Source: Priapulus caudatus (lineage: Eukaryota). From it: 14,340 nucleotides of DNA. The stretch covers positions 313,156 to 327,495 of the forward strand of contig NW_014577163.1 in NCBI RefSeq assembly GCF_000485595.1, read 5' to 3'. A program made the position numbers and the translations under genes. This document shows, in pieces, positions 1,910 to 14,176 of the stretch. Under the pieces are notes generated by a model that was given only the letters and a program-made list of their open reading frames with translations, searched no databases and had not been told where the DNA came from. The stretch's first letter is position 1. Every line of letters starts with the position of its first letter.

Positions 1910-2048
1910 GCATTTTGATCTTCCGGAGGAGGAGACCCAGAAGAGCCGGCTGTTCAGTGTCGCAGATTTTGTCGGCGATGCCTGCAAAGTGATCGCTTCA
2001 CGCATCCGCGGTTCCGTCATCAGCATTCCGTTCGACGACTTTCACAAG
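1910..2048 (+). CDS. MVP: Major vault protein exon (…[46 protein letters not shown])
   Basis: Acceptor ccccgcAG at 1908-1909 and donor GTGAGA at 2049. The translation aligns to human MVP …[48 protein letters not shown] (alignment recalled from memory). The ORF upstream of 1910 loses all similarity, which marks the exon boundary. The exon enters in phase 2. Confidence 0.85.
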
Positions 2049-2433
2049 GTGAGAGACGAGTGTGTGTATGAAACAGCATCGCCCATCAGCATGTCGTAAT
2101 CACGCACAAACGTTGAATGACATTCGTGGCGGTCAACGTGCGTGCATGTAAGGATGAGCTTGTTAAGACCTGTTTTGCTTAGTATTCTTAAAGCGTTGGC
2201 CACCGGCTGGATGTGTGTGTGCATGTGCATGTGAGCCACTGTCCTTAGCTACTATACTTCTTTCATTCGTGTTCCTTCTTTATCTTCTTTAAGTCTTTGT
2301 GGAATTCAAATTTGTAATGACAATTCTCAAACCTAAAATGCAACGTCATTTTACTGCATAATAGTAATTTTTCGTTTAACGTGAACGTCACGTGTCATCT
2401 GCATTAACTCTCACTTGCGCCATCTTTTGGCAG

Positions 2434-2645
2434 AATTCGGCGAAGATCATCCGCGTAGCGGTGTTCGGCATGGATGCTGAGATGAATGTGCGCAAGCACC
2501 TGTGTTTTGAGCAGAACTCCCTGTTCATCACAAGTGTAGACATCCAATCTGTGCAGCCCCTCGACCAGTGTATACGCGATTCACTCATGAAGTCTGAGCA
2601 GCTAGCGATAGAAATCACCACCAGCTCGCAGGAGGCAGCAGCCAG
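2434..2645 (+). CDS. MVP: Major vault protein exon ([12 protein letters not shown]…[37 protein letters not shown])
   Basis: Acceptor ttttggcAG at 2432-2433 joins in frame to the previous exon (phase 0). Donor GTCAGG at 2646. It aligns to human NSARIIRTAVFG…[37 protein letters not shown]. The six-frame ORF runs on into the intron, losing similarity and turning low-complexity. Confidence 0.85.
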
Positions 2646-3003
2646 GTCAGGAGCGACAACACGTGCTCACCTCGTGATTTGGCACGCTGTCCATCTGCTC
2701 ACTTTCTTCTACGTCAGTTCCGACCATACCCTCGCTGGTTTGCCTGTTCACTCATTTGCTCATTCACTCATTCGCTCCCTCGCTCGTCTGCATTTCACTA
2801 ATTTATTCGTATCCTTCCTTATTTGTTTAATCACTCGTTGATTAGTCTGCTCGATGTTTTGTAGTCTTACACATTTGCTAATTTGTTTGTTTTCTCCCTT
2901 ACTTTATTGTAAGGATTTAAGGAATGTAATTCAGCATGACTGCTCATGTTGAATTATTGAGATATAAGAGATGTGATAATGAAGAGGGTTTACCTCATTG
3001 CAG

Positions 3004-3112
3004 GCATGAGGCACAGCGTCTAGAGCAGCAAGCAAAGGGCAAGCTCGAGAGACAGAAGATCATGGACGAGGCAGAGGCAGAGAAGTCGAGGCGAAACCTG
3101 CTGGAACTACAG
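3004..3112 (+). CDS. MVP: Major vault protein exon ((R)[36 protein letters not shown])
   Basis: Acceptor cattgcAG at 3002-3003. The split codon ag|g gives R, matching human K at that position. Donor GTGAGC at 3113. It aligns to human [37 protein letters not shown]. Confidence 0.85.
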
Positions 3113-3410
3113 GTGAGCTCACTGCTTGTATTCCCTCCTACGTTTCTGATGTCCCATCTGTACAGACTTGTCACTCTGTAAACCCAACAAATTGGCTCAA
3201 TATCTGCTGATTCCCTGTGGATTCGAACAAGTGGGGTCCAAAGAGAGAAAGATACACTGGGTGTAACACTGAGAAGTGTCAGTGTAACTCAATCTATGAG
3301 TGATGTCTCGAGGGTTGTCAGTCTGTTACTCCTGTATTGTAATCTCATGAAATCTCGTCCAATAATTGCTGCGTATGTGTGTGACATCCCTGTACTTTTA
3401 CCTCTCATAG

Positions 3411-3530
3411 GCAGTCAGTGCAGCAATTGAGAGAACCGGCCAGGCGCAGGGTCGTGCAGAAGCTGAGAAGATTGGGGAAGCTGCAGTACAGCAGGCGAGA
3501 CTGAAGGCTGAAGCCATATCAATAGAGGCC
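3411..3530 (+). CDS. MVP: Major vault protein exon (AVSAAIERTGQAQGRAEAEKIGEAAVQQARLKAEAISIEA), cap-helix coiled coil
   Basis: Acceptor ctcatAG at 3409-3410 and consensus donor GTAAGT at 3531. It is 120 nt in phase 0 and aligns to human [47 protein letters not shown]. Confidence 0.8.
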
Positions 3531-3738
3531 GTAAGTAAACTCACTAGTGTACACCTGCGATGTTCTTAATGCCTTGCGTTAATGTAATAATGTATCAGTG
3601 TATATCTATTATAGCCAGCTTGCATTTCTCTTTTCAAATAATTGTGCGGAACGTAACTGGGTTCGCAAGGTTAAATGGGTACACTCTGCCGGTCGTACAA
3701 ACTCGTGTTTTTTTCTGGTGTTTAAACATGCACTGTAG

Positions 3739-3864
3739 ACATCAGAGCTGCAGCGTCTACAGAACGCCAGACAAGCTGAGGTCCATTATGTTCGTGAGCA
3801 GAACGCTCTTGAGGTGGAGAAGAGCCGCATTCATAGCAACATCAAAGTGGAGGAGTTTAAATAG
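3739..3864 (+). CDS. MVP: Major vault protein last recognisable exon (TSELQRLQNARQAEVHYVREQNALEVEKSRIHSNIKVEEFK*), in-frame TAG at 3862-3864
   Basis: Acceptor cactgtAG at 3737-3738. It aligns to human [39 protein letters not shown]. The stop comes directly after the VEEFK/VKKFK position, and no strong donor precedes it. Confidence 0.7.
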   Translation, partial: TSELQRLQNARQAEVHYVREQNALEVEKSRIHSNIKVEEFK

Positions 3865-4078
3865 ACATTTTTTCAGAGCAACATCAAACAAACAGAGAAA
3901 AAGAAACAAAAGGTGGACGACGACGAATCGGCCTGCGAGTAATTAAGGACGTGAAGAGAATGTGTGGTCTATGCCCTCGATGGCTCTTGGTCTGTAGTCG
4001 TTATGGCATTCAGAGTGGAAGGATTGGTTGGAAGGGCTTCACAGAAAATAATGTGTTAGATAAGAGAATGCATTACAT

Positions 4079-4767: not shown

Positions 4768-5295
4768 GCAGACGAGAGCCGGCCCTTTTGTTTAGCAGGA
4801 AGTGGCCCTTTGTTCATTCTGATTCAAAGTTCTGTTGTTTCGAAGAGTGTAGCCGATTGTATAGGTGGGCAGATCATTTTTGCTCACCAGTCGATTGTCA
4901 GTGCACCGATGTGGGCGGGCACTTATAGTAATCGTGTGTGACATAGATGTTTCACTATCGATTGAAGTTGTTGAGGTGTTGTCACACTGTTCTAGATGTC
5001 GCGTGTGTGAGGGAATAATAACTGGAATTAAGAGGTCAGCTGTAAAATGTTTCATTCGTGTTCAGAAGCCACAGCTTTCGTGATGCCTCGTGTACACGCA
5101 CGATTTTCGGTCACGCAACTACAATGTCAATGATTCGTAATTTACTTTTACCATTCAATACAAATTATGGAGAATATATTCATATATAATAAATAAAATA
5201 TTAAACAGCATATCTAACTGAAGTTTTTTAAATGAAAGAAAACATTCTGTATATATATAAGCAACATTTTCTGTATGCTATTAAGATGCTTTGTA

Positions 5296-6250: not shown

Positions 6251-6845
6251 CGCATATAATCATATATACTAGAATGTAGTTTCTGAACAGTGTATGAGCA
6301 CGTGTTTACTTGAGGATTGTACGCACGAGTACTTATCACACATCTCTTGGCTCCCATTCCCACCGTCACGCAGTTAAACTGAATATCGTTAGCATGCAGG
6401 CCAACGACTTAAAGTGATTACGTCACCGAAAATAGTAAAAGTAAAAATGTCTACTTTTTCTCAAAATGCAAGCGATTACATTGTACAATCTTATCAGGTA
6501 AAAATTCGAGGATAAATTTAGCGCCGTTAGTACTTACTTTTCCTGTAAAAAATTGCAACAAACATTTTACAAATGTACACCATAGAAAATTCGTGACGTA
6601 GTCAATTTAAAGCTGGGAAAATCTATGATCAAAACGGATTTAGATCATCAACACGAATGACATGAATTATCAAGTAAATAAACGATGACATATTGTACAC
6701 ACATGTTACAATATTCAATGTTACGCCGGTGTACATCTTCTGGTTTCATCTGTACACTAGCTCTAGATTAATTCGCAGAAAATGAGCGCACATTGACATC
6801 ACATATGCGGCTTTCCCCCATTACATGGCTCAGCGCGCTCTCTTT

Positions 6846-6861
6846 GTATATATGTCCCGTG

Positions 6862-6940
<79 letters not shown>

Positions 6941-7052
6941 TCTCTCTCTCTCTCTTCTCTCTCTTCTCTCTCTTCTCTCTCTCTCTCTCTCATCTCTCTA
7001 TCTCGCTCTTTCTCTCTCTCTCATCTCTCTATCTCGCTCTTTCTCTCTCTAG
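6846..7052. repeat. (CT)n microsatellite, over 80 units with interruptions
   Basis: The sequence is ctctctct… throughout. The SLSLSL and RERERE ORFs are its translations. Confidence 0.95.
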
Positions 7053-7254
7053 CATCCGTCGGGGGTGCGGATGTTTCACTATGCATGGCACTGCTCCCTT
7101 CTCATTTTCGCTCGTTCTCTCGCTTTCTCTCGCGCTCTCTCCGCTTTACCCTCGTTTCCTTCTCCATGTCTCTCATTCTAGCTCTCTTGCTCTGTTCTGT
7201 CCTATCTCCCACCTTCAGTCCCCACTCCTTTCTGTTCCTTTTGCTCTCACGACT

Positions 7255-7255
7255 T

Positions 7256-7307
<52 letters not shown>

Positions 7308-7320
7308 TCTCTCTCTCTTT
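7255..7320. repeat. (CT)n microsatellite, second block
   Basis: Runs of ctctctct… read directly from the sequence. Confidence 0.95.
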
Positions 7321-7439: not shown

Positions 7440-7500
7440 AGTGTTAAGATTAGTGTTAGTATTAAGGGTTAGGGTTAGGGAAATAAGGGTATAATAATAT
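7440..7500. repeat. Degenerate telomere-like repeats (gttaag/ttaggg), with an exact (TTAGGG)2 at 7469-7480
   Basis: gtgttaagattagtgttagtattaagggttagggttagggaaataagggtataataatataggg. Confidence 0.75.
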
Positions 7501-7912
7501 AGGGAAATTATTATAAACGCCTTGTGCAGTGACGTCATAAGACGTGATCACGTGCCCTCGATCTACGCCCGAGGGAAAGTGACACCCAGTAACACGCTGT
7601 AACCACTACATGCACATCTTGATGCACATACATATGTAACGACATGATGCCGTATAGTACATAGCTGCGGTTAGTAGTCAATACATGGGGTGAACGCACA
7701 TGCGGCTAGTAGCCAGTACACAGTACACATGGCGACGAACGCGCGCGCTATGTGTAAACATCTCACGAACGGACATGCTGTATGCTTTAACATCTTGCTA
7801 TCTATTCGCCGGATTGCTGCAGACAACGGCAACCGCCATGTTGGAGGCCATGTCTGGCACGAGTACGCGTGACCTACCTACGTCACGTGATGCGTCACGG
7901 TGTATGTTTCAG

Positions 7913-8112
7913 GCAGCCGGCTGAAAGGGGTGGTAGGATATGTTTACTAAGCACTTCTAATTTTAACATATATTTTAAATTTAATTAGGGTCAGGGTTAG
8001 GGTTAGGGCACTTTTTAGGGGTTTTTGCATCATTCTTTAATATATCGTAAAATATATGTTAAAATTAGAAGTGCCTAGTAAACATATCCTATCACCCCTT
8101 TCAGCCGGCTGC
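7913..8112. repeat. 200-bp foldback: ~65-bp inverted-repeat arms with a loop carrying ttagggtcagggttagggttaggg
   Basis: Left arm 7913-7977 (gcagccggctgaaaggggtggtaggatatgtttactaagcacttctaattttaacatatatttta). The reverse complement of right arm 8049-8112 differs at about 3 positions. The loop 7978-8048 holds TTAGGG-type repeats. Confidence 0.85.
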
Positions 8113-8224
8113 ATGTTTCGGTCGAGGTACGTCACTTGACACAACATCCGCGCTTGCTTACCGCATGCAGTTATCTACCCAAACATCGCCGCACACTCAC
8201 CTCAACCCCTTACACGCCCGCCAC

Positions 8225-8565: not shown

Positions 8566-8842
8566 GGAGAGTTTCAATAAAACATAATGCTAAATAACTA
8601 CGAAATATATTTACTACCAGTCTTAATGTTTCTCTACTCTCCTTCACCTATTATTGCCGACAAACCGTGCTGCAAATGCTTCAGCCACTGCAACACACGC
8701 CCACCGCACGCACGCTGCTACGCGCTACTGGCAGTACTGCACACTTACACATAAATATAGAGTACTTAACACTTACACACATATCTATTCAATATTGATA
8801 TATATATATACAATATTGATAGACTCCTGATTATATATATAT

Positions 8843-8900
8843 CAGGAGTAGATAATAGGGAATTATTATTAATAGGGAATTCCCTATTATCTACTCCTGA
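8843..8900. mobile_element. 58-bp mini-hairpin (MITE-like) carrying the same termini as the 11246-12015 foldback element
   Basis: tcaggagtagataataggg-aattattattaataggg-aattccctattatctactcctga. It sits inside (TA)n. An extra truncated terminus agactcctga lies at 8821-8830. Confidence 0.7.
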
Positions 8901-8914
8901 TGTATATATATATA

Positions 8915-9112
8915 TGTGTGCGTGTGCGCGTGCGCGTGCGCGTGTGCGCGTGTGTGTGCGTGTTTGCGGGTGTGTATGTGTTTGTGTTTGTGTGCGTGTG
9001 CGTGTGCGTGCGTGCGTGCGTGCGTGTGTGTGTGTGTGTGTGTGTGTGCGTGCGTGTGTGTGTGTGTGTGTGTGCGCTCACTGTGTGCGCGTGCTCGTGC
9101 CGCGTGCGTGTG
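8915..9112. repeat. (GT)n/(GTGC)n/(GCGT)n compound microsatellite
   Basis: Runs of tgtgcgtgtgcgcgtg… Four overlapping ORFs (CVCVCV, THTHTH) are its translations. Confidence 0.95.
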
Positions 9113-9308: not shown

Positions 9309-9448
9309 ATTAATGCCTGCTGTTGGGGGCACTATGCTCTCATAGTGTTGCTGAGGGAAGGAATAGTGCCCGAGCGGTAGCGAGGGCACTATTCCTTCCC
9401 AAAGCAACACTATGAGAGCATAGTGCCCCCAACAGCAGGCATTAATGT
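9309..9448. repeat. 140-bp near-perfect palindrome (60-bp arms, 13-bp loop gagcggtagcgag)
   Basis: attaatgcctgctgttgggggcactatgctctcatagtgttgctgagggaaggaatagtgccc | loop | gggcactattccttccc-aaa-gcaacactatgagagcatagtgcccccaacagcaggcattaat. The arms differ only at ctca/aaa. Confidence 0.9.
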
Positions 9449-10050: not shown

Positions 10051-10196
10051 GATTATGATATGAGCATCTTGACCACTGATCTCTATAATATAATCGATTA
10101 TATTATATTATATTATTATTATATTATTATATTATTATATTATTATATTATATTAATCGATTATATTAATATAATCTCGATTATATTATAGAGATC
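10051..10196. repeat. Inverted repeat (arms ~35 bp, cactgatctctataatataatcgattatatta) around a (TATTA)n core
   Basis: The reverse complement of 10160-10200 (cactgatctctataatataatcgagattatatta) matches 10072-10105. The aagagct motifs lie outside the arms at both ends. Confidence 0.8.
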
Positions 10197-10220
10197 AGTG
10201 ATCTTGACAGCTCTTTGACC

Positions 10221-10251: not shown

Positions 10252-10309
10252 TGTTGACAGCGCCACCAATTGGCAAGAATAGAAGATAATGTAATAAAAT
10301 GTCGAGCCC

Positions 10310-10416
10310 CACACCTGCCCTAGACTGGTACTCGCTCCCACCTCGATTACTCGACGGTGTAGCCATCGAGTAACTAAGCCGAGAGGTGGGAGCGAGTACC
10401 AGTCTACACCTGCCCT
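10310..10416. mobile_element. 83-bp palindromic MITE-like insertion (10322-10404) flanked by an 11-bp direct duplication ACACCTGCCCT
   Basis: acacctgccct|agactggtactcgctcccacctcg-attactcgacggtgtagccatcgagtaactaagc-cgagaggtgggagcgagtaccagtct|acacctgccct. The outer stem is 25 bp with a nested 11-bp inner stem (ttactcgacgg/ccatcgagtaa). The direct repeats sit at 10310-10320 and 10405-10415. Confidence 0.6.
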
Positions 10417-10480
10417 GGCACACCTGGGCGGTTACATTCTTCTGTATTGAAAACCAGTAGCGGCGTGACGGCGTCGATGC

Positions 10481-10501: not shown

Positions 10502-10553
10502 ATGGAGGATGTTTCTACAGTTGTTGTCGTGTTACTGGCGTTGTGTCATACTG
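10502..10553 (+). CDS. Putative signal-peptide exon (MEDVSTVVVVLLALCHT+g), phase 1, proposed exon 1 of the Ly6/uPAR gene
   Basis: ATG in good Kozak context, a hydrophobic core, and a consensus donor GTAAGA at 10554. It ends in phase 1, exactly what the 13215 acceptor needs; g+gt gives Gly, producing …CHTG|LAIRCYSC. The implied intron is 2.66 kb and contains the foldback element. Confidence 0.35.
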
Positions 10554-10720
10554 GTAAGAACCGAGATCGTTAATTATTCGCGCGTGCATTTATACGGTGA
10601 CAGTGTTTAATAGCGTACCTTTTCGGTACATTATTCACACATAAATTGGACACAACTGTTGCAGGTCACACAAAAACAGAAGTCGGGGACGTGTATGACT
10701 CAACTTGTAGTCGGTTCAAG

Positions 10721-10879
10721 GATAGAGAACATGGGTCCCAATAAAACCAATGTCATTTACATCAATATAAATTATTAAATATAATATTAATTATTATATC
10801 AATATAATAGGTTAGGGTTATGGTTAGGCCTTAGGGTTAGGCACATTGGTTTTATTGGGACCCATGTACGTTCTCTATC
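10721..10879. repeat. Foldback: 32-36-bp inverted arms (gatagagaacatgggtcccaataaaaccaatg) with a loop carrying ggttagggttatggttaggccttagggttagg
   Basis: The reverse complement of 10843-10879 equals the left arm with a 4-bp insertion (gtac). The loop is AT-rich followed by TTAGGG-type repeats ending …ggcac, as in the 7913-8112 element. Confidence 0.85.
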
Positions 10880-11078
10880 ATTTGGGCCTGTAGTCTACGT
10901 CTACGTCTACATCTGACACAGGCACTTGGGACAGAGTCAGTAAAAACTGAAAATAATATGAACGCACATTCACAAATACTACCGTACCTCTCAATTACAG
11001 TTCCACTGTTGTGTCACTGTATATCAACTTTCCTTCATAAAAACAAACACCGAACGCTCCCGCACTCGCCGCTGCGAG

Positions 11079-11215
11079 TGTGCTGTGTCGCCATTAGTTC
11101 TAGTACTATAGCCCGCTTACATTAATTGCCACTGCCAGCGGCAACTGTACGCGGGCTATAGTACTAGAGCTATGTCGCCATTAGCTCTAGTACTATAGCC
11201 CGCGTACAGTTGCCG
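11079..11215. repeat. S-shaped repeat: three copies of ctagtactatagcccgc in + / - / + orientation
   Basis: gtcgccattagttctagtactatagcccgc…gcgggctatagtactagagctatgtcgccattagctctagtactatagcccgcgtacagttgccgc. The middle copy is inverted relative to both outer copies. cagcggcaactgtacgcggg / cccgcgtacagttgccgc are also inverted. Confidence 0.8.
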
Positions 11216-11245
11216 CTTTGAGACCAAATTGTATATATATATATA

Positions 11246-12015
11246 TCAGGAGTAGATAATAGGGAAGGAGTGTGACATCAATAAACAAGGGAAATTCGTC
11301 ATTTACTAGCCTTAGAATACCTACGATTTACTACGCGTAACGCAACCAACTTGAGCTCAAATCGTACACAGTACATTTGCCTAGCATCGTGCTAAATCGT
11401 TTCCTCGTATACACCCGCAATCCGGAGATAGAGACTAAAACGTACGACACGATTATCCATTCTGTTGCCAGCACACAGAATCCAATAGACGCAAAACTTG
11501 AAACAAAAGGCAGCTACTAACGCGCTATTGCTAACTCGGCGAGGCATGTGGCTCGCTGGGAGATTAGGCATCAACGCAACACTCGGCGAGATAACCTTTG
11601 ACCCGGTACACAGCTACATACCGGCATACCGACATACAGCTGGCATGCCCCCACGCACGCACGCCAACCGCAATCAGCAGCAGATCGGGCTCAAATCTCC
11701 CAGCGAGCCACATTGCCCGCCGAGTTAGCAATAGCGCGTTAGTAGCTGCCTTTTGTTTCAAGTTTTGCGCCTATTGGATTCTGTGTGCTGGCAACAGAAT
11801 GGATAATCGTGTCATACGTTTTAGTCTCTCTATCTCCGGATTGCGGGTGTATACGAGGAAACGATTTAGCACGATGCTAGGCGAATGTACTGTGTACGAT
11901 TTGCGCTCAAGTTGGTTGAGTTACGCGTAGTAAATCGTAGGTATTCTAAGGCTAGTAAATGACGAATTTCCCTTGTTTATTGAAGTCACACTCCTTCCCT
12001 ATTATCTACTCCTGA
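11246..12015. mobile_element. 770-bp foldback / long-TIR element: terminal inverted repeats of ~320 bp (11246-11565 and 11694-12015) around a 128-bp unique core, inserted in (TA)n
   Basis: Termini are tcaggagtagataatagggaaggagtgtgac … gtcacactccttccctattatctactcctga. The arms are roughly 93-95% identical. The mirror-image ORFs at 11392-11574(-) and 11598-11930(+) translate to near-identical peptides (SNLPASH.ARRVSNSALVAAFCFKFC.YWILCAGNRMDNRV) only because they read the two arms. No transposase ORF is present, so it is non-autonomous. Confidence 0.8.
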
Positions 12016-12030
12016 TATATATATATACAA

Positions 12031-12069
12031 TCAAGAGTAGATAATAGAGTCTCTATAATCTACTCTTGA
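12031..12069. mobile_element. 39-bp mini-hairpin variant of the same TIR terminus (tcaagagtagataatagag / ctctataatctactcttga), flanked by TACAA on both sides
   Basis: It lies 16 bp 3' of the big element inside the same (TA)n tract. Direct tacaa occurs at 12026-12030 and 12070-12074. Confidence 0.65.
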
Positions 12070-12075
12070 TACAAT

Positions 12076-12146
12076 GTATATATATATATATGTATATTAT
12101 ATATATACATTGTATATATATATATATATATATACATATATATACA
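12076..12146. repeat. (TA)n microsatellite with interruptions
   Basis: Runs of (ta)n interrupted by tgtata and ttatat. Confidence 0.95.
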
Positions 12147-12342
12147 CTAGGGGTCAGTGATACATATGGTATTTTGTTCTAAAGTAAAACAATGTGGCTA
12201 TCTTTGTCAGGCTGCAAAGATATATGATCCCAGTTATTACCTAGGTAATGCTATTTATTGCATTCATAAGGTTGCATTCATTCTGGCTATTTCATTTTTT
12301 CACTGGGTGTGGGCCAGGGTGCATCTTGGTTGATAAGAGAGG

Positions 12343-12418
12343 TGCTTTGTTGTTGTTGTTGTTTTTTGTGGCTAATGCTGCTGCTGCTTCTGCTGCTGTT
12401 GCTGCTGTTGCTGCTGCA
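12343..12418. repeat. (TTG)n followed by (GCT)n trinucleotide repeats
   Basis: ttgttgttgttgttg…gctgctgctgcttctgctgctgttgctgctgttgctgctg. Overlapping ORFs give poly-L and poly-A. No splice or gene context supports coding. Confidence 0.85.
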
Positions 12419-13214
12419 GTACCGAAGTTATTGTCGTAGATTACAGGGAGGAAAATCTTTTGCAGTTTCATGGATTTCTGATTTTTTTAGCTGTTAGTAC
12501 TGATTTGGATAAATTCAAAGAGAAAATTTAGGTGGGGTTAGAATACCTTACGTGATTTAAAGACCAGACTTAGCCCGATGTCTCATAAACTATAGTCATG
12601 GGAATTGGTTGGAATTCCATCATCAATCATCGGTTGCACGCAACCGATCGATGATTGAAGATAATCAGTTGAATGTTATTGATCGCGGCTACCAGATGTT
12701 GAAATATATTATATATCATATAATACAGTATTTTTTTATAATACAATATTCGAAAAGCTATATGACAGTATTATGCATGCTTATGTTTGGTGCAGGTTAT
12801 ATTTACTGTCTTCATGCTGTATAGTAACCAAACTAAACACAATAATAAAATTAAGTGTCATTTCATCAGTGTTTGCAAATTTTATTAAAAAATGTGAAAA
12901 AAACTTTTTTGATTGATTATTTATTTTCATAATCAAGCGCTTATACGTATAGTCGGTTGCTGCAAACGACTGACTTTCGATTATAATCGATCATCGGGAC
13001 ATCACTATCATAAAGTCGGATCACATTGTTAGAGAGCAACTTGTTTAGTTTAGTAAAACTATGGAGTATTAACTAAGTCGAGTGTATTCCAGATTGTGAC
13101 TGTAGGTATTTTGTACACCATTTGTCGTTGCAATTTTTTGTTCAATTATGATTTCAGATTTTTTTGTCGGTCATTCTCATCCCTGATCCTGAGGTCATGA
13201 TTGCTTGTTGACAG

Positions 13215-13361
13215 GTCTAGCCATAAGATGCTACTCATGTACAGTTCCTCCATATCCAGGAGCGGATCTTCATACAAATAAACGCAACATCTGTCCAGAC
13301 ATTAGTTGTCCGGGACCAAAGGAGGAACAAGTATGTGTGAAGATTACTGATAACAGAGGAA
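13215..13361 (+). CDS. Ly6/uPAR (three-finger) domain exon: (G)LAIRCYSCTVPPYPGADLHTNKRNICPDISCPGPKEEQVCVKITDNRG
   Basis: Acceptor ttgttgacAG at 13213-13214 and consensus donor GTAAGT at 13362. It opens with the LU-domain signature L-x-C-Y-S-C and has 5 cysteines with family-typical spacing. It enters and leaves in phase 1. Confidence 0.6.
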
Positions 13362-13374
13362 GTAAGTATCACAG

Positions 13375-13411
13375 TAATATTAATAATAATAACAATAATA
13401 ATAATAATAAT
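13375..13411. repeat. (AAT)n microsatellite in the Ly6 intron
   Basis: aataataataacaataataataataataat. Confidence 0.95.
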
Positions 13412-13464
13412 TTAGAATGGATATTCTGGTGTAAACTGTATGTATTTCCCTCCAGAGTACTCAG

Positions 13465-13468
<4 letters not shown>

Positions 13469-13495
<27 letters not shown>
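13469..13495. repeat. (TA)13 microsatellite
   Basis: Read directly from the sequence. Confidence 0.95.
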
Positions 13496-13640
13496 TGTGT
13501 GTCGGAGATTATTGTCACAGAGACAATTAGGAATCACCATCATGGGAGAGAAAAACCACCCAGTCTGAAATAGGCTTGAATAATATATTTACGGTGACCT
13601 GTTGTGCAGACGTGTTTCATAGCAGTTTTGCACATGAATA

Positions 13641-13662
13641 AGAGAGAGAGAGAGAGAGAGAG
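13641..13662. repeat. (GA)11 microsatellite
   Basis: Read directly from the sequence. Confidence 0.95.
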
Positions 13663-13746
13663 CTAATTTTGTCTATTACGTATTTACCTTTGTCACTTTT
13701 TGTCATACTGGGTTTTGTCATGAAAGTATGTACACATTGTTTCTAG

Positions 13747-13830
13747 GCGAAGAGGTCATCGTAAGAGGGTGCCTTTGGGACCTCAGATCAAGTAACTGGG
13801 CTCCTCTGCTCCCTGGAGATGTATTTACAG
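13747..13830 (+). CDS. Ly6/uPAR domain exon: SEEVIVRGCLWDLRSSNWAPLLPGDVFT(G)
   Basis: Acceptor ttgtttctAG at 13745-13746 and donor GTATGT at 13831. It is phase-1 compatible with the neighbouring exons (a|gc gives Ser, g|ga gives Gly) and contributes one Cys (RGC). Confidence 0.55.
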
Positions 13831-13976
13831 GTATGTGACTTACTTATTTAACAGTGAAAATAAATCATGCTTAGGATATGCGCATTAAAACAGTTCTTTG
13901 TCTCCATGGAATCTTTATTAATTTATATATGTTTACAGCTGATTCAGTCCTCCAATCTTTAACATTATCTTCGCAG

Positions 13977-14176
13977 GATGCCGGAAACCAGCTGTCGATA
14001 AATACCTAACGCCTAATGACTACTATCTGAACGTGTACAAGCAACCACACGAATCCATAGACTTCTGCTTCTGCAATGACTGGATATGGTGCAATGGCGC
14101 ACCACAACTGGTGAAGTCGGCCATCCTGCCTGGTTTACTATTGGCTTTGTCGCTGTGGCATTTATTGTACGCATGA
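13977..14176 (+). CDS. Ly6/uPAR terminal exon: (G)CRKPAVDKYLTPNDYYLNVYKQPHESIDFCFCNDWIWCNGAPQLVKSAILPGLLLALSLWHLLYA*
   Basis: Acceptor tcttcgcAG at 13975-13976. It holds the family's C-terminal signature: a near-adjacent Cys pair FCFC, then x5, then C-N (CNDWIWCN). A small-residue omega region (NGA) follows, then a 17-residue hydrophobic tail, which is a typical GPI-anchor signal. TGA at 14174-14176. The mature domain has 10 Cys in total. Confidence 0.6.

Follow-up and report, generated by a model that had tools for sequence, protein, structure and literature searches.

Does the gene for the major vault protein (MVP) of Priapulus caudatus end directly behind the cap-helix, or does the locus on contig NW_014577163.1 that gives this impression represent something other than the functional gene? 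The cap-ring, the conserved C-terminal region of MVP comprising about 60 residues (PMC3595041), shapes a beta-barrel pore at each end of the vault particle, in its tips (PMC13347060), and its consensus (IG..TI..IA..GPEMQ.K.LQ.LG..STLITDG..PINLF) is absent from the reading frame described here. In the following, the window refers to the whole stretch of 14,340 bp that was analyzed.

Exon structure of the MVP copy

Analysis of the plus strand revealed five MVP exons with canonical AG/GT borders, referred to as exons a (1910-2048), b (2434-2645), c (3004-3112), d (3411-3530), and e (3739-3864). With canonical sequences at each of the five acceptors and four donors, the splice sites are intact, and the four introns between the exons range from 208 to 385 nt. 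Translation resulted in a product of 234 aa comprising shoulder and cap-helix, with 233 codons open before a TAG. A match to the Pfam domain MVP_shoulder (PF11978, E = 4.4e-31) covers profile positions 28-118 of 118, and the start of the shoulder domain consequently falls upstream of the first MVP exon in the window. The product also aligns to residues 594-796 of the solved human and rat MVP chains (E ~1e-49), with five residues deleted, and its frame ends with ...SNIKVEEFK, followed by the in-frame TAG (3862-3864) that closes the open reading frame on the plus strand. The observation in an earlier note on this DNA that the frame stops after the cap-helix is thus borne out, as exons, translation, and the alignment to residue 796 of the human and rat chains all agree.

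Only 1.9 kb of sequence lie upstream of exon a. Using tblastn with the P. caudatus protein XP_014662129.1 described below, no upstream MVP exon was found in 1-1909, nor was there any match in the window to its residues 1-551, which comprise the vault repeat domains R1-R9. A tblastn alignment that ran past the first acceptor into upstream sequence (1833-1909) was not repeated with XP_014662129.1 as query and was discarded as noise. To account for the missing upstream exons, insertions may have swollen the upstream intron, or else the duplicated segment starts within this intron and the copy is a 3' fragment.

Search for cap-ring sequences in the window

The C-terminal region of MVP was searched for in the window via tblastn, as the earlier note had proposed, and neither 12 MVPs of other organisms nor the species' own MVP gave a cap-ring match. 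In addition, an HMM of the cap-ring was built from 119 full-length MVPs and run against all six frames of the whole window with filters switched off and E-values of up to 1000 allowed, which resulted in a single noise match with a score of -5.3.

The complete MVP of P. caudatus

Using a 769-aa chimeric query, composed of the N-terminus of an MVP from a JGI metagenome contig and the exons of the window, we retrieved XP_014662129.1 (UniRef A0ABM1DQA8), annotated as major vault protein-like [Priapulus caudatus]. This protein of 865 aa possesses every Pfam MVP domain as well as a complete cap-ring and tail. Judged by this protein model, P. caudatus keeps a complete MVP with cap-ring, and the implication of the earlier note that the MVP of this species lacks the cap-ring has to be abandoned.

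Comparison of XP_014662129.1 with the window via tblastn revealed matches only for its residues 552-789, with identities of 80-97% per segment, some segment ends reading into introns. Over these residues, 220 of 238 positions are identical and 18 differ. A RefSeq model without a 'low quality' flag is a direct translation of the genomic sequence; XP_014662129.1 differs from the exons of the window and is therefore encoded by other exons. Since the window contains no match to residues 1-551 or 790-852, the exons of this gene, referred to as the parent, are located outside of it, and the window therefore holds a second, different MVP copy.

The second gene of the window, LOC106805155, is located on the plus strand at 10502-14175, in agreement with the earlier note, which had placed the next plus-strand gene near 10.5 kb. 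Its coding exons (10502-10554, ~13213-13364, ~13747-13830, and ~13977-14175), spliced by eye, encode a product of 160 aa that exactly matches P. caudatus XP_014662136.1, a Quiver/Ly-6-like protein (Pfam QVR, E = 7.4e-07), which has a signal peptide and whose hydrophobic C-terminus is of the GPI type; by this match, the window is priapulid genomic DNA. XP_014662129.1 and XP_014662136.1 are each located on a scaffold of 597,058 bp and their accession numbers are only seven apart, and the intact MVP gene appears to sit elsewhere on the same 597-kb scaffold as the copy.

The deletion junction and the retained C-terminal end

Downstream of the TAG, the end of the parent coding sequence is retained. 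The last 13 residues of the parent (853-865) and its TAA stop codon are found identically at 3901-3942 on the plus strand, in the same frame as exon e, so that the parent's own stop is kept 78 nt downstream of the TAG. Between this tail and the last codon shared with the parent protein lies a filler of 42 nt (3859-3900, plus strand), which takes the place of the 63 cap-ring codons of the parent (790-852) and is in frame at either end. The filler reads AAA TAG ACA TTT TTT CAG AGC AAC ATC AAA CAA ACA GAG AAA; translated in the same frame, the sequence behind the TAG yields T F F Q S N I K Q T E K, followed by the parent tail of 13 residues and the stop. The presence of the parent tail and stop just past the TAG therefore indicates an internal deletion and not a natural gene end after the cap-helix. 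The statement of the earlier note that nothing MVP-like follows the stop holds for the cap-ring, which was detected neither by tblastn nor by HMM, and fails for these last 13 codons and the TAA; the tail is lineage-specific and, therefore, could not have been revealed by the comparison with vertebrate MVPs on which that statement was based.

The filler itself contains one half of a direct repeat of 17 nt. The first copy, TTCATAGCAACATCAAA, is located at 3830-3846 on the plus strand and provides the codons for ..IHSNIK, while the second copy, TTCAGAGCAACATCAAA, is found 42 nt downstream inside the filler (3872-3888, plus strand) with 16 of 17 positions identical. Short templated insertions at deletion junctions are known as products of template-switching or polymerase-theta-type end joining, and the second repeat copy looks like such a templated insertion. 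The acceptor-like motif 'ttttttcag' in the filler overlaps this second copy and represents copied exon sequence and no intron end, since TTCAGAGCAACATCAAA is a copy of TTCATAGCAACATCAAA with a single mismatch. As a remnant acceptor of the last intron, acattttttcag (3865-3876) was rejected, because TTCAGAGCAACATCAAA is an exon copy and the sequence that follows is unlike AKLLQSLG, with which the last exon begins.

The counterpart of exon e in Lingula and Saccoglossus is about 20 codons longer and reaches ...GPEMQ, and the last exon extends from VKLLQ to the stop. The homologous exon runs on to ...GPEMQ, and therefore the TAG is located inside expected exon sequence and away from an exon boundary. 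If the parent gene is structured like those of Lingula and Saccoglossus, the deletion would have started within the penultimate exon, removing its 3' part, and would have continued across the entire last intron and through ~43 codons at the beginning of the last exon.

Another reading takes the locus for the genuine gene end, with long-range splicing to cap-ring exons that are situated at a great distance downstream or are missing because of a gap. It would be compatible with the finding that no polyadenylation signal is obvious close to the stop, AATAAA occurring for the first time at 5188, and nothing else in the data favors it. Several results speak against this explanation: the annotated MVP differs from the exons of the window at 18 positions and is encoded by other exons, the remaining 10.4 kb gave no cap-ring signal on either strand, the parent's stop and last 13 codons are already present at 3901-3942, and the region of 10502-14175 is occupied by the unrelated plus-strand gene. 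As candidate donors ahead of the stop, the earlier note had named GTGGAG and GTCCAT only; this list is incomplete, as it omits GTGAGC (3794) and another GTGGAG (3814). None of these sites in exon e is evidence for onward splicing, because all of them are situated inside codons kept by the parent protein. Altogether, we assign long-range splicing to a distant terminal exon an almost vanishing probability.

Concerning the last intron of MVP genes in other animals, we observed that the one in Lingula anatina (~6384-6616 of the locus) uses a GC-AG donor (ATGCAG|gcaagt). Furthermore, one sequence in an alignment of 120 MVPs, probably the 1,022-aa isoform of Apostichopus, revealed a large insertion exactly at the position of the Lingula last intron, so that this model may include an unspliced intron or an additional exon.

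Divergence of the copy and loss of constraint

The 18 positions that differ between the copy and parent residues 552-789 result from 13 substitutions and two small in-frame deletions in the copy. Exon a (shoulder domain; parent residues 552-597) carries A578V and A588I, while exon b (end of the shoulder and start of the cap-helix; residues 598-668) revealed E638Q, V640L, R643C, T644I, and V652E, four of these five being located in columns invariant across the MVPs compared. The cap-helix exons c (residues ~668-704) and d (residues 705-749) displayed L688M and L706V, S712R, and T745I, respectively, and exon d has additionally lost 12 nt encoding the invariant AKAE (716-719) and 3 nt encoding E730. 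The retained part of exon e (3739-3858), which encodes cap-helix sequence corresponding to residues 750-789 and ends with ...SNIKVEEF, harbors A750T and E761Q. Wherever one of the 18 differences falls into a conserved column, the conserved residue is kept by XP_014662129.1 and lost in the copy, e.g., in A578V, A588I, E638Q, R643C, T644I, V652E, S712R, and the deletion of AKAE.

For an estimate of constraint, we used 120 full-length MVPs, including those of sponges, cnidarians, molluscs, echinoderms, and cephalochordates, across which 94 of the 238 columns are invariant. The copy breaks 11 of these 94 columns by seven substitutions and four deleted residues, whereas the 120 other MVPs revealed no break in 104 cases, one in 12, two in three, and three in a single case. 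At the protein level, seven of the 13 substitutions in the copy fall on invariant columns compared to 39% expected at random (p = 0.21). Substitutions are not depleted at invariant columns, and therefore the pattern is the one expected without purifying selection. It points to a copy under relaxed constraint, on which purifying selection would no longer act.

One position behaves differently. The codon following EEF (3859-3861) is AAA (K) in the copy, while residue 790 of the parent is A; K is found at this site in 97 of 119 MVPs, and residue 790 is the sole position where the copy and not the parent has the family consensus. This lysine could be an ancestral residue, or it could have arisen by coincidence as part of the filler; in any case, the codon is poorly explained by a simple copy of the present-day parent and counts against that notion.

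The open frame, the intact splice sites, and the in-frame indels could indicate a copy whose frame was maintained for some while, or else a paralogue that is young or still in use. The lengths of the three indels, the large replacement at the junction among them, are all divisible by three, for which the chance is roughly 1 in 27. This is mildly surprising, and less so in a codon-periodic, Ala/Glu-rich helix. Based on the amino acid changes, we estimate the neutral divergence at ~2.8%, which corresponds to ~20 expected substitutions per 700 nt and, by our estimate, to a ~45% chance that none of them creates a stop codon; the open frame is therefore unremarkable.

Annotation and possible expression of the copy

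Three homologue searches in a collection of 15 billion sequences, with targets of up to ~1,345 aa, resulted in no protein with the variant residues of the copy, and an exact look-up of an open reading frame from the window in the protein collection gave no record. The collection includes other RefSeq models of P. caudatus. The best match to the 234-aa copy was 68% identical (targets of at most 409 aa), while a longer chimeric query of 486 aa resulted in 70% (targets of at most 851 aa). No Priapulus transcript-derived open reading frame of either MVP copy was found in the collection, which holds no priapulid transcript open reading frames, and none of the papers searched mentions Priapulus together with MVP.

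With 233 open codons, intact splice sites, indels that are all in frame, and a filler that holds the parent tail in frame, the locus might represent an expressed MVP paralogue without a cap-ring, which would use upstream exons beyond the window or a promoter of its own. Its protein would either end with EEFK, or the TAG would be spliced out. The latter variant draws on three phase-0 GT sites (3781, 3814, and 3847) and a phase-0, acceptor-like CAG (3874-3876) that flank the TAG; splicing from one of these GT sites to the CAG would bypass the TAG and keep the native tail of 13 residues. Such introns would measure only 30, 63, or 96 nt and use weak donors, whereas the real introns of this gene are 208-385 nt long and have good donors, and the 'acceptor' consists of copied exon codons. 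The shortest of them, at 3847-3876, was rejected as a functional mini-intron of 30 nt, being too short compared to the real introns of the gene and resulting in the product SNIK|SNIK. Further results are at odds with an expressed paralogue: 11 of 94 invariant positions are broken by changes that are random with respect to constraint, no protein with the variants of the copy is present in the collection though other RefSeq models of the species are, and no upstream MVP exon was found within 1.9 kb. We therefore regard an expressed paralogue as unlikely. If expressed, its product could be built into vaults together with MVP, and their cap would then be altered or open; that a living paralogue of this kind exists, which lacks the cap-ring, ends with EEFK or splices across the TAG to keep the acidic tail, and enters vaults with an altered or open cap, seems highly improbable to us.

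A different origin would be an uncollapsed second haplotype, i.e., a decayed or null allele of a single MVP gene that was placed beside the real gene during assembly. False tandem duplications are common in short-read-era assemblies of wild marine invertebrates, and both loci are apparently located on one scaffold of such an assembly and display high identity to each other. Set against this, XP_014662129.1 and XP_014662136.1 are each the sole member of their 90% cluster, which argues against a duplicated or haplotypic neighborhood, since neither the Ly6-like protein nor the MVP has a visible second member with at least 90% identity. Moreover, a dozen changes at invariant residues together with three deletions are far beyond the allelic damage expected in a constrained gene, and the window is free of N gaps. 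An assembly artefact consequently strikes us as quite improbable.

Type of duplicate and proposed origin

The introns of the copy are retained, and four of five boundaries match those of Lingula MVP in position and phase, namely W|HF (phase 2), FHK|NS (phase 0), AAR|HE (split codon), and IEA|xSEL (phase 0). At the first of them, the 5' boundary of exon a (1910), the codon for W551 is split (TG|G) in the same way as in Lingula. Based on its retained introns, the copy was classified as a duplicate at the DNA level and not as a retrocopy; a processed pseudogene, which would be intronless and display poly(A) and target-site duplications, was dismissed because four introns are present.

Taken together, we consider it probable that 1910-3942 is an unprocessed, lightly decayed duplicate of MVP (a pseudogene or fragment of a gene) from which a complex internal deletion has removed the cap-ring. 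The earlier note had left a choice between a naturally truncated paralogue, a pseudogenised copy, and a terminal exon far downstream. Among these, the pseudogenised copy is supported by the intact parent, the lost constraint, and the parent tail past the TAG, while the far-downstream exon is excluded within the window.

The origin of the copy can be outlined as follows. A duplication at the DNA level would have covered the final third or more of the P. caudatus MVP gene, with the functional parent (XP_014662129.1) remaining elsewhere, apparently on the same 597-kb scaffold. After the duplication, constraint on the copy would have ceased, and the copy would have gathered missense changes at otherwise unvarying MVP positions as well as the two short cap-helix deletions. 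A single complex deletion would have removed the 3' end of the penultimate exon, presumably the last intron, and most of the last exon, altogether 63 codons with the whole cap-ring, leaving behind the 42 nt of filler with the TAG, followed by the parent's last 13 codons and stop, which would have remained untouched. The junction itself might have been formed by template-switching or end-joining repair. Under this scenario, which we infer from sequence comparisons, the copy would be neither functional nor expressed.

Compared to the P. caudatus MVP, the copy shares 220 of 238 residues in 552-789, the last 13 residues with the stop, and apparently the scaffold, but it lacks residues 790-852, carries an in-frame TAG, 13 substitutions, and five deleted residues, and has no N-terminal exons in the window. 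With unprocessed pseudogenes it has in common introns at ancestral positions, a close functional parent in the genome, a premature stop, an internal deletion, and substitutions blind to constraint. In contrast to typical unprocessed pseudogenes, it shows no frameshift and its splice sites are intact, and it is therefore of recent origin or has decayed only slightly. A genome with more than one locus related to MVP is also known from Dictyostelium, whose MVP alpha and beta are functional paralogues (cited in PMC3595041). While these two proteins are full length and co-assemble into vaults, the P. caudatus copy lacks the cap-ring and has lost invariant residues.

Relevance of the truncated copy

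The truncated MVP sequence is real but ordinary if read, as preferred here, as the slightly decayed second copy of a conserved gene in an ecdysozoan that has been little studied. It is of relevance to annotators and to studies on vault evolution, as the MVP-like fragment of P. caudatus could pass for a truncated MVP. To our knowledge, insects and nematodes lack MVP, in contrast to P. caudatus, which, going by its protein model, retains a complete MVP with cap-ring. The junction, with its templated copy of 17 nt in a filler of 42 nt, provides a clean example of complex repair. If the copy were expressed, it would bear on the open question of the role of the vault cap-ring, and a true paralogue without this region would represent a natural experiment on the purpose of the conserved cap-ring.

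Further features of the window

No tRNA genes or Rfam families were found in the window. Upstream of exon a, within the 1.9 kb mentioned above, a tandem repeat of ~176 nt (284-735), whose copies display identities of 93% and 66%, is interrupted by (AATT)n stretches, and G/C-rich palindromic motifs at ~60-190 recur at ~1470-1510. Microsatellites of the types (CT)n and (GT/GC)n at 6840-7320 and 8900-9100 gave spurious low-complexity matches on the minus strand in tblastn.

The intergenic region of 6.6 kb is rich in near-perfect hairpins and palindromes, which were identified at 7910-8115, 9309-9446, 10071-10203, 10296-10420, 10700-10870, and 11137-11217. Some of them harbor TTAGGG-like telomeric repeats in or near their loops (~7985-8010 and 10800-10850), and such repeats were also detected at 7455-7480. 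A foldback element of 794 bp (11234-12027) revealed inverted arms of 201 nt with 98% and 141 nt with 95% identity; (TA)n tracts flank the element, which terminates in CAGGAGTAGATAATAGGGAA (see also 12000-12070). The termini of this element also form a miniature palindrome of 79 bp at 8832-8910, and together the two look like members of a MITE or foldback transposon family inserting in TA repeats.
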